Source of the DNA: Escherichia phage vB_EcoM_ESCO47
Direction: 5' to 3' (one strand)
Length of the DNA: 64,000 bases
Sequence record: OM386662.1
Positions within the stretch are counted from its first letter, which is position 1; each line of letters starts with the position of its first letter. The position numbers and the translations under genes were made by a program. The notes under the pieces were generated by a model. The model did no database searches and was not told the DNA's origin. It worked only from the letters and a program-made list of their open reading frames with translations. This document shows, piece by piece, positions 34,170 to 40,542 of this stretch.

Positions 34170-34829
34170 TTATTTAGCCCTTCCTAAAATCCTGGCCGCT
34201 TGGTTACAAATAGAAGCTAAGCGGTCTTCTCCTATTATTTTAGTCCCCTTATACCAATACATTGAAACAGCCCCAGCATATACGTTGTCCAAATTAAAAT
34301 AAGGGCAACTATACATGTAGTTTAGTTCCTCAGTTTTAGACTTTGTTGGCAGAAATGCGAACTCTGTTTTAGAATCAAAGTGCCTTCCACTTAAATGAAT
34401 TAAATATTCATTCATAGTCTTATCCACCGGAAATCCACCTAAAGACTTCTCGGAAATGGTAGTAGGTAGTTTACCCTCATATGCAATAAGGTCCACAAAA
34501 TAATTTAAATTTTTAGGGCGGAAAGAATACACTGCACTAAAATCTGCACCGGAAGAGATATGAACTATCTGTAATTGTTCTAAAGCCGCAGATTCAAAAC
34601 GTTGGTCTCTTTCCTTTTGTATAACTTCTGTGTATGTGTCATATTTGGCTCTCACATAATAGTCGAGGAATATAGTTCCTTTATACCATATCAAAGCCAT
34701 AATGAATAAAAGAACAACAACGGCCACACGAGAAACAAGAACTTTCCCGGTGGCATTATCTTTGAAAATACGATCTAACAACCCAAATAGAATATCACTA
34801 GGAGAGAATGATACTCTAGGCGCTGCCAT
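34170..34829 (-). CDS. t: holin T
   Basis: 219 aa; MAAPRVSFSPSDILFG...single TM...C-terminal periplasmic domain matching T4 T as I recall it. Confidence 0.93.
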   Translation of the reverse strand: MAAPRVSFSPSDILFGLLDRIFKDNATGKVLVSRVAVVVLLFIMALIWYKGTIFLDYYVRAKYDTYTEVIQKERDQRFESAALEQLQIVHISSGADFSAVYSFRPKNLNYFVDLIAYEGKLPTTISEKSLGGFPVDKTMNEYLIHLSGRHFDSKTEFAFLPTKSKTEELNYMYSCPYFNLDNVYAGAVSMYWYKGTKIIGEDRLASICNQAARILGRAK

Positions 34830-34839
34830 AATACCTCCT

Positions 34840-35391
34840 TTATCTGAAGATATTTATCACTCTTTTAAAAAATGATTTTCGTTCTTTTTCTGGCCATGCC
34901 GGGAATTCGCCACCTAAATGCTCATGCTTTTCATAAAGAGCAAAGAAACGTTTAAGATTCTGGTAATAGAATTTCTCGTCTTTATTTGCAACAGAAGCTT
35001 CAACCAAATTAGACAAGACTTGGTACTCTTTAAAAAGTTGATCAAGTTTTCTATTTCTAAGAGTCAAACGTTTATAACACTCATCCTCTTTCCAGCCGCC
35101 ATCTATCCAAAGATCAAACTCGCCAGGCTCATCAAATGTTGCACCCTGTAAGCTTCCTATACTATCAATTTTAACGGGTTGTTTATCGAAGGTCCAAGCT
35201 AGTTTACCGCGATGATCTTCTTCGTAAATCCAATCTTGAATGCGTTCGTCAAAAACAATCGCATATCCTTCTTTATGATCAAGTGGTTTTTTAGTTGTAG
35301 AATGCGCCGGGAGCCCAATGCCTTTAACAGGTTTATATGTTTCTTCTTTATAAAATTCTTTAGTGTCAAAATAGTAGTGGTAAATTTTCAT
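34840..35391 (-). CDS. 38: tail fibre assembly protein gp38 (T4-type)
   Basis: 183 aa; MKIYHYYFDTKEFYKEE...HLGGEFP matches T4 gp38 as I recall it. Confidence 0.9.
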   Translation of the reverse strand: MKIYHYYFDTKEFYKEETYKPVKGIGLPAHSTTKKPLDHKEGYAIVFDERIQDWIYEEDHRGKLAWTFDKQPVKIDSIGSLQGATFDEPGEFDLWIDGGWKEDECYKRLTLRNRKLDQLFKEYQVLSNLVEASVANKDEKFYYQNLKRFFALYEKHEHLGGEFPAWPEKERKSFFKRVINIFR

Positions 35392-35399
35392 TATTATAA

Positions 35400-35415
35400 A
35401 GGGCCCGAAGGCCCT
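35400..35415 (-). terminator. hairpin between genes 37 and 38 (minus strand)
   Basis: Minus-strand AGGGCC-TTCG-GGCCCT with weak U tract; likely attenuator or stability element. Confidence 0.35.
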
Positions 35416-35419
35416 CTCC

Positions 35420-38400
35420 TTAAGCTAAACGAACGATATAGTTAAACGCAACGTTTTTAACAGTGTTCTCTGTATTACCTGTTGCGTTAACTGTTATTGT
35501 GTGACTATGTGAGCCTAATGCAACGGTGTGTGTATGAGCACCAATACCTACAGTATGCGTATGAGCACCAACGGCCACGTTATGTGTATGTGCTCCAGCC
35601 GAAGCAGCAGTACCAGATAAAGAGTGACTGTGGTTGCCCTGACTGTCTGTTTTCGCACAATAACCAGCTCCCTGCTGGTTGGTTCCTTTAACCGTGGATA
35701 CACTTGCCGGAATGGTTACTGTTCCGTATTGGCTCCAACCACTACTGCTCATCCTTAAACCATCTGTGTGAGCATGGGCGCCGGTTGAGTTTGTGGAACC
35801 GCTCAGACTATGTGTATGCGCACCAGCTGAAGCAGCAGATTTGGTACCGTAGTCAAAACTCGAACTTGTCTTAGTACCGTAGTCAAAACTTGACGACGTT
35901 TTTGTACCTAGATCAACCGAGTTAGAAGAAGCACTATGGGTATGAGATTTAACACCATCTGCTTCTGTACTCAACACTGCACGACCACTCGGTTTACCTT
36001 TAATAGTTTGTCCACGCATATCAGGAATAGTTCCTGAAGTATATACTGCACCTAATTTAGGATACGCCGCTTTGTCAAAAGTCTGGCCTTCCATAATAGC
36101 ATAACCCACAGGAGGTGTATCAGTTGGCCATGGAATCGGAGCACCAATCGGATAACTAGAGATGATATCCGTCTTAAGACTATTTATCGTCGTATTTAGG
36201 TTAGCAAAGTTACCAGTACCACCTGTGATATTACCATCAGTACCAATTATAACGGTATTAATTTCAATTTTATTAGGTGAACGGAACGAGCCATCACGTC
36301 TAAATTGCCATGCTAAATCCGCCTTTTGTGGACCTGTTGAATCATTATCACCGCCTTCATGATAGTGAATTCTAAAATCACCCGTACTAATTAATGTACC
36401 CAAAGAATAACAACTATCGCCCTGGACATATCGTTGTTTCAAAATAGGAACGTAAGTACTTGTATCTGTACGATTAATATTCATGTAGAATGGGGCACGA
36501 ACATTTTCATTATTTTGCGAGACAAATGAACCAGCCCCTGCTGGTTTAACAATATCAGTACATTCAGCATCAATATATGTCGACTGCCCTAATTGCATAC
36601 GGAAATTAGGACTTATACGCGAATTAGTGGTCAACACAACGAGTTTTGTATCATTGTCTACGGTGACCATATTACCGCCGGCACCATCATCACCTAATGT
36701 AACGGTATGACGCATTTGTACCATGCCATTATTAAGACTAATACTTAATGGGCGGAGATTACTTATTCCACCGCTTTCACCAGCATCTTTGGGAGTTGGA
36801 ATAATATGCAATGCTGCTTCAGAGCGGCGGAAAATAGCACCGTATTCGGCATTCCAAATTCTTAATGCATCATTAGTTCCACCAATTTTAACTTGACCAC
36901 TAATAGAAGAACCGCCTGTTAAACTAAGTCCATTGCTCATGGTAACTGCACCATTTAAAGTGCTCAAACCATCAACTTTAAGACTTCCTGCAGTGTTAAT
37001 AGAGCCGTTAGCATTAACTTGTCCATTGAACTGGGATACAACAGGCCCAGTAGTTTCAGAGCCACTTGGAGCCATACGCTGTGAATAAAAATAATATCCT
37101 TGTCCATCAGAAACTTCGAATACTGTTTCGCGCGCTTTGTCACCGGTAGCATTAAAACTATTACCCCAAGCTTTAACAGTCACATAACTTTTATTCTGTC
37201 CTGCTCTAGAACCAGCTTCCCACAAGATTTGTTTTGTGCCGTCTACCCCTGTAGGAGCTTTAAATGTTAAAGCCGACGTATTATCGTCACCTGCAAAATA
37301 CATGCCGGATCGTATAGAAATACGTTGGGTTGAATAGATGGTACCATCAGCCCTAAGATTTAATTCATTATTACCGGTTTTGATGTTTAATATGCCAGGT
37401 TCAACAATAAGACCCTCGGACATAGATACTGCCATACGTCCTGTGCCACGGAAATAATGATAAAACTTACCATTACTATTATACCCAAGATGAGTTTGTC
37501 CATCACCGTTAGCATTACCATCAGGAGTTGTTTGAATTGTTAAAACAGAAGCGTTATTTCCAGGCATTACCCAGGTGGCACCAGAGTCATCTGAGCGACC
37601 GACAGTCAAACGTTTCGTACTTAAAAATACCCCATTTGTTAAAGTCGCAGTAGAAGTACCTTGTGCAACAAAATCAATTTTACCTGAAGCGATAGATTTG
37701 AATCCAGTAGATGGGTCCCCTAGAACTATATAACATTCGCCCATAGCGCCAGTTGAACCATAGTTATTAATGTTTTCATCTGCGGTAATTGTGCCAATTG
37801 CGAGAGAACGACGTAATACTAAAGATCCATCATTACGAAGACCCATCCGTTTATTAATCGCGGTGTCACCTGTCCACCAAGAAATCTCTTCGCTTTTACC
37901 AGTTTGTGAAGAAACTAATTCATGATAAATCGTGCCGCCGGATTTTGCGCGGAATTTACGAAGATAGTTAATACCGTTTTCTTCACCTGTGCCAGGATAA
38001 ACATACTGAACTAATGATTGCGAATCGTATTGTCCAAATGCTTTTGTGTCTAAAACAATGGTTTTCGTATTAACTTGTGGAGCAGAAACTATACCAGTAG
38101 CGGAGTTAATATTGCCTGACGCAGAAATATTACCTGTTGCAACAACCAAGCTACCAGAATCAACCGTAAATCCACCATCGCGTCGGAAAGTCCAATATTT
38201 CGAAGTGCCTGTTTCATCAATATAATGCATCTTCATTGAGCCTTCATTAACTAAGGTCCCTAATGAGAAAGTACCATCTTTATAACGTTGCTTAATTAAC
38301 GGGTTATATTCTGAAGTAGCGGTTGATGCGGAAATATCCATGAAAATAGGGGCTTTTGCCGTGTGTTGACCGGCCCAAGAACCAACTCCGGTGCCCTTAT

Positions 38401-38674
38401 AAGCAAATTCGATATATCCACCTGATGCAACATTTTGTGAGCCTATTAAATTAAATGTACCTGTCTGAGTATAGTTACCTACATGAGTTACATTACCATT
38501 AATATCCCCACCTTTAGCGAACCCAAGGTTAATAATATTGCCTAAATCATCTTTTGTAAAAATAGTACGATCTTTTAAGTTTATAGCCAATTCACCTTCG
38601 GCTAATTGCGCAGCTGTTGGATTAACACCAGCTACTTTGCTTCTTTTAAATTGTATTTGCTTAATAGTAGCCAT
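35420..38674 (-). CDS. 37: long tail fibre distal subunit gp37
   Basis: 1084 aa; C-terminal His boxes GAHTHN/GAHTHT/GAHTHT/GSHSHT and terminal [11 protein letters not shown]. Confidence 0.9.
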
Positions 38675-39414: not shown

Positions 39415-40542
39415 TTATTCCGATGCTTCTCTAAATTCTTGACCAAATACTTTACCCGTATCAGTTGAAGATTGGGTAGGGAACGTCATAATATCTGGAG
39501 GACTTAAAGATTCTGAAACATAATTTACACGAATACCATTTACACCAAATTCTGCGGCCTTCGGTATACTTCCATTACACGAAACTTCAGTGAATATAAT
39601 ATTTCGTAATCCACCTTGACCGGCTGCCGCAGTTCGATAACAATAAATTGTGAACCCGTCAGCATCAGCAGGAATTTTAGTATACTCTTCAAATATCTTC
39701 CATTGTCCTGCTGTTCCATCAAAGTTTAAATCTTTAAATGAAATAGGAGACGTTGAAGGAGATTTAAAGAAACGTATAGAAAGTCTTGTGGTTCCTTGAG
39801 CTAACAAATCAGCGTCAGCCATCATCTGGAATTTCGTATAAAGAAAATCACCAGGCTTTAAATTGTAGTTAGCAAGAGGAGTCACTAGTGATGTTGTAGG
39901 CATCCTTTTAACTTCATTATTAGTTCCACCAACGGTAGATAAAAATGTATCCGTCGATTCAAATGTGCGAACAGGGAAACCGGTAGCACCTATATCATCA
40001 ATTGTATCATAAACGACTTCTAACGGAGTGCTATAATCAGCACGAGACTTTTTATTTCCATATTTTATATGCTCTAAAGCAATAGCGTTCTTTCCTGACA
40101 CATAAAACGCGGAATATGAAATGTCCACGATATTTAACACCGGTTGAGCCATAGGAATAACTGAACTACCTGCTTTAGTGAACCAAGTTAAAACTTCAGG
40201 CGGGAAGTTAGTCTTATTATTTGTCACAAAAGCAAATATGAATCCGGGAGCGTAAGAGTTCATAAATGCAACAAAAGCATTTGAAGTTGCGTCGTTTACA
40301 GTAGAAAAATTATAAACTTTACTTTCTACTATGGCACCTGACGACGGATTTATAATGCGAACATTTAATCCAACTGCGAAAACTTGACCACCGAGCGGAC
40401 TATCCTGAAAATTTATATACGGGTTTGTAGTTGAAAGCGGGCATGAACCCGCTATACTTAATTTAAATCTTACTGAATTGCTTTCCGATAAAAATGGCGT
40501 TTGGACGTATCCTTGTCCAAACTTAGCCATAAATTTTTCCAT
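39415..40542 (-). CDS. 35: long tail fibre hinge protein gp35
   Basis: 375 aa; size and position between 34 and 36. Confidence 0.85.
   Translation of the reverse strand: MEKFMAKFGQGYVQTPFLSESNSVRFKLSIAGSCPLSTTNPYINFQDSPLGGQVFAVGLNVRIINPSSGAIVESKVYNFSTVNDATSNAFVAFMNSYAPGFIFAFVTNNKTNFPPEVLTWFTKAGSSVIPMAQPVLNIVDISYSAFYVSGKNAIALEHIKYGNKKSRADYSTPLEVVYDTIDDIGATGFPVRTFESTDTFLSTVGGTNNEVKRMPTTSLVTPLANYNLKPGDFLYTKFQMMADADLLAQGTTRLSIRFFKSPSTSPISFKDLNFDGTAGQWKIFEEYTKIPADADGFTIYCYRTAAAGQGGLRNIIFTEVSCNGSIPKAAEFGVNGIRVNYVSESLSPPDIMTFPTQSSTDTGKVFGQEFREASE

Follow-up and report, generated by a model that had tools for sequence, protein, structure and literature searches.

The window analysed here, a stretch of 64,000 nt from sequence record OM386662.1, belongs to vB_EcoM_ESCO47 (ESCO47), a Mosigvirus isolated from horse dung with a narrow host range on APEC strains (PMC10269720). 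Its minus strand, which carries all of the features described below, contains gene 37 (35420..38674), an ORF of 1084 aa encoding gp37, the distal subunit of the long tail fibre. The product is an exact sequence match to UPW39410.1, annotated as the 'receptor-recognition protein' of this phage. Upstream of gene 37 are the genes for gp36 (PF03903) and gp35. Immediately downstream comes gene 38 (34840..35391), which encodes a T4-type tail-fibre assembly chaperone of 183 aa and is an exact match to UPW39409.1, annotated as 'distal long tail fiber assembly catalyst'; the holin gene t follows it (34170..34829; 219 aa; Pfam PF11031, E=6e-92). The initiation region of gene 38 (35401..35419) contains a Shine-Dalgarno sequence, GGAG, at 35416-35419 and a hairpin, GGGCC-UUCG-GGCCC, at 35401-35414; as computed, the fold shortens the distance from the GGAG to the ATG at 35391. 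The hairpin is kept in T4, JK45 and GiZh, with a compensatory C-G to G-C change, and a split ribosome-binding site has been described for T4 gene 38 (PMC3014915).

The C-terminal part of gp37 carries eight boxes of the form HxH. Three of these fall in the ascending arm of the needle delineated below: box 1 (KSHTHS, 35933-35950, first His at aa 911), box 2 (GAHTHS, 35807-35824, aa 953) and box 3 (GAHAHT, 35765-35782, aa 967). The other five fall in the descending arm: box 4 (GNHSHS, 35621-35638, aa 1015), box 5 (GAHTHN, 35579-35596, aa 1029), box 6 (GAHTHT, 35552-35569, aa 1038), box 7 (GAHTHT, 35525-35542, aa 1047) and box 8 (GSHSHT, 35498-35515, aa 1056). Boxes 5-8 follow a strict 9-aa spacing with linkers of 3 residues each (VAV, VGI and VAL), and Tandem Repeats Finder reported a 27-nt period at 35532-35597 (2.4 copies, 76% matches). 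The abundance of these motifs is far above chance: the whole of gp37 has nine against 0.6 expected and its last 180 aa have eight against 1.3 expected, and in neither case did any of 20,000 shuffles contain as many. The initial annotation of this locus had named four boxes, GAHTHN, GAHTHT, GAHTHT and GSHSHT, at the gp37 C-terminus; these are real, correspond to boxes 5-8 and precede an 11-residue C-terminal peptide. Its inventory was nevertheless incomplete, as GNHSHS lies inside the span that it described (35420-35700) and was missed, together with the three ascending boxes just beyond it.

The same annotation had taken gp37 to be of the T4 type with metal-binding HxH boxes, and comparison with the crystallised T4 gp37 tip (PDB 2XGF) bears this out. 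The last 326 aa of gp37 matched 2XGF with E=6.8e-89 (phmmer), query residues 56-326 aligning to chain residues 2-242, which is the whole crystallised construct; the tip of the ESCO47 fibre does align with the T4 needle domain. The T4 needle holds seven iron ions, each bound by HxH histidines from three chains (PMC6957217), and all 14 of its iron-ligand histidines, from seven boxes, were invariant in a five-way alignment of ESCO47, T4, LF82-41, 9g and lambda Stf. ESCO47 gp37 has two histidines (one box) beyond these 14. Over its last 271 aa the protein is 70% identical to T4 gp37 (from T4 residue 781), with the same order of collar, up-and-down stem, head and collar and with all seven T4 boxes kept; the 14-residue C-terminal sequence is kept as well, and the structural glycines G921 and G964 of T4 correspond to G959 and G1013 in ESCO47. 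The two proteins differ in that ESCO47 has an extra 10-aa GTK unit on the way up and an extra 9-aa unit, GAHTHNVAV, on the way down, giving eight boxes rather than seven and a box spacing of 42,14,48,14,9,9,9 against 32,14,37,14,9,9 in T4. The inter-box gap that holds the head is 11 aa longer in ESCO47, the head sequences are unrelated, and the residues of T4 that contact OmpC and LPS have no alignable counterpart in the ESCO47 head.

The domain boundaries of ESCO47 gp37 were transferred through the alignment from the T4 map (PMC6957217), in which collar domain D10 comprises residues 811-881 and 1010-1026, the stem runs up through 882-931 and down through 960-1009, and the tip subdomain spans 932-959. 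On this basis, the N-terminal part of the collar lies at aa 839-909 (35948..36160; T4 811-881), where a match to Pfam Collar (PF07484, E=1e-10) was found at aa 844-891. The ascending stem arm, with boxes 1-3, follows at aa 910-969 (35768..35947), as placed by alignment with T4, lambda, 9g and LF82-41, and includes three 10-aa GTK units (35819..35908) where T4 has two. The tip subdomain, or head, comprises 39 aa (aa 970-1008; 35651..35767; T4 932-959) within an inter-box segment of 43 aa (aa 970-1012) between boxes 3 and 4. The descending arm, with boxes 4-8, was placed at aa 1009-1067 (35474..35650) from the T4 alignment and the 27-nt period, and a C-terminal collar strand of 17 aa (aa 1068-1084; 35423..35473) aligns with T4 1010-1026, so that collar sequence flanks the needle on both sides.

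This anatomy changes where the receptor would be met. Receptor contacts in T4 gp37 are located in the head (PMC5221442; PMC6957217), and from the shared domain order we infer that the ESCO47 head at 35651-35767 is the receptor-binding apex and the host-range determinant. It had been proposed that the four C-terminal boxes form the receptor-recognition tip and that variable host-range segments separate them. As the T4 map puts the descending stem after the tip subdomain, boxes 5-8 would instead be a conserved shaft returning from the apex and not the receptor-binding end, and what separates them is 3-residue linkers, in the stretch of gp37 where conservation is highest. By the same map, the 11-residue C-terminal peptide would belong to the collar, at the needle end most distant from the receptor. 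The host-range segment would be the one head, flanked by boxes 3 and 4, about half of which falls within 35420-35700. The initial annotation had therefore made a real observation and a correct family assignment, but had looked for the receptor site in the wrong region of gp37.

The additional GTK unit and the additional His box of ESCO47 are related to each other by a rule that holds across the homologues: the first ascending gap has a length of 12 + 10n for n descending boxes spaced 9 aa apart, and there are as many GTK units as such boxes. The classes (gap/n) were 22/1, 32/2, 42/3, 52/4, 62/5 and 73/6, in two architectures, and ESCO47, with n=3, has one rung more than T4. The rule was obeyed by every complete tip among 263 homologues from two database searches, one of which gave proteins of 342 aa or less only, without 9g and LF82-41, while the other was an exhaustive representative search; the homologues counted are cluster representatives and not phylogenetically independent events. 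Among IMG/VR loci, 35 of the 37 complete tips fitted, one (L052) was too divergent to score and one (L039, on a metagenomic contig) broke the rule, with three GTK units and n=2, that is 42/2 instead of 42/3. The pairing was thus kept in all but one of the approximately 250 complete tips scored, and we reject the rule as an absolute. In the exception, a mismatch of one rung may be tolerated, or the 27-nt repeat may have collapsed in short-read assembly. Both stem arms of T4 are 50 aa, and the contacts G921-F970 and H929-G964 set an antiparallel register of i + j ~1891, in which each GTK unit would face one His-box unit. The needle appears, on this structural analogy, to be built from paired rungs in which a 10-aa GTK unit going up faces a 9-aa His box coming down. 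The number of HxH repeats is known to range from 7 to 9 across T4-like coliphages (PMC6563267).

While the needle belongs to the T4 family, its head does not resemble that of T4. The box spacing of ESCO47 and its 29-aa tail are identical in lambda Stf, 9g, LF82-41 and JK45, and a tblastn search of phage records with the last 196 aa gave 93% identity to LF82-41, 89% to the 9g side fibre and 75% to lambda Stf, with all other T-even phages at 71% or below. ESCO47 was compared with 26 other tips that share the eight-box arm spacing and vary in head length. With the exception of one outlier, P0199 (48% and 56% for the two arms respectively), the ascending arms were 61-89% and the descending arms 72-94% identical to those of ESCO47. 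The heads were bimodal: lambda-type heads were 72-95% identical to that of ESCO47 and all others 33% or less. Over the 43-aa segment, the figures were 95% for LF82-41, 84% for 9g and 72% for lambda. Because head identity is bimodal while the arms are conserved, the head has the character of an exchangeable cassette in these alignments, and by sequence both the head and the exact box spacing are of the lambda Stf/9g type rather than the T4 type; the T4-type assignment does not extend to them.

These relatives share the tip with ESCO47 in different settings. LF82-41, also a Mosigvirus, is the closest overall (91.8% nucleotide identity over the C-terminal 1850 nt of gene 37 plus gene 38) and likewise pairs a head of the lambda type with a chaperone of the gp38 type, although the N-terminal half of its gp37 is far more divergent, with three short blastn stretches of 67-81%. 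The side tail fibre gp70 of the siphovirus 9g (Nonagvirus) has the same geometry and head type, but comes from an unrelated phage family with a Tfa-type chaperone downstream, and its similarity to ESCO47 starts at the collar domain. The orf-314 part of Stf from lambda (Ur-lambda) has the same head type and spacing in a siphovirus side fibre with another N-terminal shaft, and its nucleotide identity to ESCO47 is just ~70%.

The type of head bears on the likely receptor. Lambda Stf binds OmpC (PMC12617516), and T-even phages that carry the adhesin on their own gp37 target OmpC (PMC8594841). With a lambda-type head, OmpC is therefore the best guess for ESCO47, and by analogy it is most probably the receptor of this fibre. 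Laboratory T4-lambda hybrids, in which a T-even fibre was given the C-terminus of lambda Stf, reportedly required OmpC in the work of Montag, Schwarz and Henning in 1989; those hybrids are said to have carried lambda tfa as well, whereas ESCO47 was isolated from nature and has retained a T4-type gp38. The receptor could differ from OmpC because the head is just 72-74% identical to that of lambda and because, in T4, one substitution in the head is enough to switch recognition between OmpC and LPS (PMC5221442). With the same anatomy, the lambda-type head might recognize LPS core sugars or another outer-membrane protein, an alternative that we regard as unlikely but one to be taken seriously. T4 itself falls back on LPS when OmpC is absent (PMC5221442), the related PhiNP tip uses LPS glucose-II (PMC9659904), approximately 11 of the 43 positions differ between the ESCO47 and lambda heads, and ESCO47 plates on 3-9% of APEC strains (PMC10269720), a host range that would fit a different receptor. 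Against it, lambda Stf is the only characterized head of this sequence type and binds OmpC, and OmpC is needed by all characterized T-even phages with a gp37-borne adhesin. OmpC remains the receptor that we favour.

At the DNA level, the tip is a patchwork of segments that match either LF82-41 or 9g. The region encoding gp37 aa 895-929 is of the LF82-41 type and includes a 96-nt exact run; aa 936-950 are 9g-type and aa 954-988 LF82-41-type; aa 988-1023 are near-identical in ESCO47, LF82-41 and 9g; aa 1024-1047 are 9g-type, with a single mismatch in 72 nt against 9g and 17 against LF82-41; aa 1048-1054 are unique to ESCO47; and aa 1057-1083 are again LF82-41-type. The differences between LF82-41 and ESCO47 coincide exactly with the two 9g-like patches, each of which holds 17 mismatches. 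Between ESCO47 and 9g there is one stretch of 182 nt with two mismatches, as well as exact runs of 84 and 59 nt, and both phages were obtained from horse faeces or dung. All of the switches between parents occur in or beside repeat or His-box sequence, and a 27/30-nt direct repeat encoding AASAGAHTH lies on both sides of the head. The position of the switches matches the model of Tetart and Krisch (cited in PMC3157838).

With regard to a possible prophage source of the tip, megablast found no match to it in 5,426 complete E. coli genomes. Raw GC content rises to 0.50 at 35500-35800, which was considered as a sign of foreign origin and rejected: GC3 is 0.31 in the tip, compared with 0.34 in the T4 tip and 0.25 in the rest of gp37, a modest excess. 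Since GC3 is close to that of the T4 tip, the peak mostly reflects a composition rich in Gly, Ala, His and Thr.

In the T4 register (here i + j ~1978), the two patches of 9g type would lie exactly opposite one another in the shaft. The inner edge of the central LF82-41-type tract could not be placed because aa 988-1023 are near-identical in all three phages; the idea of facing patches is informed by their outer boundaries only. The arrangement is suggestive of filtered exchange, without demonstrating it. We tentatively propose, as an idea that may well prove wrong, that rungs are interchangeable but gained, lost or exchanged only as facing pairs, and that compatibility within the needle acted as a filter on a recent myovirus-siphovirus exchange, seen in the ESCO47-9g patches. 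On a different reading of the same mosaic, what matters most about the His boxes is not metal binding: following the Tetart and Krisch model, they would be linkers, conserved in both DNA and protein, that favour the shuffling of fibre segments by recombination. The patchwork, whose switches all coincide with or adjoin repeat and His-box sequence, and the direct repeat around the head are what such linkers would leave behind. However, the linker and metal roles do not exclude each other, the T4 histidines coordinate iron and substitution of either H929 or H931 by Ala is lethal (PMC6957217), and the strict conservation of HxH together with the 9-aa register over approximately 250 proteins indicates a structural constraint at the level of the protein. 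We consider it improbable that the boxes are primarily linkers, and prefer to regard them as metal sites of the needle.

The product of gene 38 had been described as the chaperone type and not the T2-type adhesin, and this is upheld. ESCO47 gp38 is 98% identical to gp38 of LF82-41 and 76% identical to T4 gp38 over 178 aa, compared with 29% for both lambda Tfa and the Tfa-type protein of 9g, and it matches PHROG 105, 'tail fiber assembly', with E=1e-41. It contains 6% glycine and two GG dipeptides, and no glycine-rich or poly-glycine motifs were found in it; the gp38 adhesins of the T2/T6/S16 type, by contrast, are ~260 aa long with glycine-rich motifs between hypervariable segments. That gp38 might be such an adhesin, capping gp37 and binding the receptor, has in its favour only the position of its gene directly downstream of gene 37, and is refuted by its identity to the T4 chaperone, its PHROG match and its size and composition, with gp37 in addition having a complete needle and head of its own; we give this reading practically no credence. 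In both T4 and ESCO47 a gp38-type chaperone gene is found downstream of gene 37, and ESCO47 has no Tfa-type gene in that position, unlike lambda. Among the IMG/VR loci, the gene behind the tip went with the kind of phage and not with the class of needle: it was Tfa-type for siphovirus and prophage tips and gp38-type for T-even tips. In the records examined, a lambda-type head combined with gp38 was present only in ESCO47 and LF82-41. From these gene arrangements the chaperone would seem to stay with the phage backbone and not to travel with the tip, a pattern that fits the two chaperone families described within the T4/lambda family of tips (PMC9659904).

Taken as a whole, we think it very probable that the locus encodes the homotrimeric distal needle of the ESCO47 long tail fibre, of the T4 gp37/lambda Stf kind, with a lambda-type head and a T4-type chaperone. 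Each gp37 chain would leave the collar and climb the shaft through aa 910-969, contributing three HxH boxes and three GTK units, form the apical head at aa 970-1008 and then descend through aa 1009-1067, where it would contribute five more boxes, four of them in the strict 9-aa period, before ending in the collar. At each box, a metal ion on the fibre axis would be bound by six histidines, two from each of the three chains; by analogy with the seven Fe of T4, eight metal ions are predicted, with the occupancy of the eighth site an extrapolation. By its sequence the needle is one modular rung longer than that of T4, and its geometry matches lambda Stf exactly. Receptor specificity would reside in the lambda Stf-type head, which would dock most probably on OmpC. 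The gp38 protein, presumably translated from the hairpin-bridged split ribosome-binding site, would act as a folding chaperone together with gp57A, which is encoded elsewhere, and is predicted to be absent from the virion.

The needle is of a known kind and is found in a published, annotated phage, and as such provides little new biology. HxH iron needles have already been documented, as has the T4/lambda family of receptor-binding tips with its two families of chaperones (PMC9659904). The analysis is of more use for work with the phage itself. ESCO47 is a candidate for APEC cocktails, and attempts to engineer or predict its host range should be directed at the 39-aa head at 35651-35767 rather than at the four C-terminal boxes, with OmpC as the first receptor to consider. 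The 10:9 coupling of the two arms may furthermore provide a design rule for chimeric fibres of this family, in which rungs would be added or removed in pairs.

Mosaicism of gp37, the distal subunit of the long tail fibre, is also seen at a larger scale, with a split between 35420-37243 and 37244-38674. The C-terminal 1.85 kb of the gene, together with the chaperone gene 38, shares 92% identity with the Mosigvirus LF82-41, whereas the best matches to the N-terminal half, at about 78-80%, are Tequatrovirus/Citrobacter phages (GiZh, PhiZZ23); the flanking genome has ~86% identity with Mosigvirus genomes. At the other extreme of scale is a short divergent patch encoding aa 1048-1054 (35513-35531, minus strand), in which the window departs at six sites where LF82-41 and the siphovirus 9g agree. 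All six changes are synonymous, as the peptide is identical in the three phages. The patch may have been acquired from a third donor, or His-box units may have undergone conversion with one another within the gene.

Between genes 37 and 38 (35401-35419, minus strand), 23 nt ahead of the ATG of gene 38, a GGAG Shine-Dalgarno sequence is followed by a UUCG-tetraloop hairpin, GGGCC-UUCG-GGCCC. It is the already known 'split ribosome-binding site' of T4 gene 38. The stem in T4, JK45 and GiZh is GGGGC...GCCCC, and relative to it the stem of the window shows a C-G to G-C exchange that is compensatory. We note that gp35 (39415-40542, minus strand) matches Pfam PF15711 (ILEI, interleukin-like EMT inducer) over aa 58-129 (E=1.3e-6; 29.3 bits, where the cutoff is 27), a surprising family for a fibre hinge protein.

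A ninth HxH motif of gp37, RIHYHE (aa 768-773; 36356-36373, minus strand), sits ~140 aa upstream of the needle and may represent an additional metal site in the shaft. T4 conserves this motif in the form RVHYHG (aa 742-744), beyond the crystallised fragment. Within the head of the needle, the sole cysteine is Cys1005, in GAGYCAK (35660-35662, minus strand), which is common to 9g and LF82-41 but is replaced by leucine at the matching position of lambda; trimerization would bring three cysteines close to the apex.

Among the sequences found, the numerical pairing of ascending 10-aa GTK units with descending 9-aa-spaced His-box units was broken only by the tip ORF of one metagenomic locus, IMGVR_UViG_3300030021_000020, with three GTK units to two 9-aa His-box units. 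Either a mismatch of one rung is tolerated or a 27-nt repeat has collapsed in the metagenome assembly. In the window, a 27/30-nt direct repeat that encodes AASAGAHTH (35581-35610 and 35809-35838, copies 228 nt apart) flanks boxes 2-4 and the head. The peptide is likewise present in both arms of 9g, but only in the descending arm of LF82-41. This repeat could be a substrate for head duplications and deletions, as reported in T4 host-range mutants.
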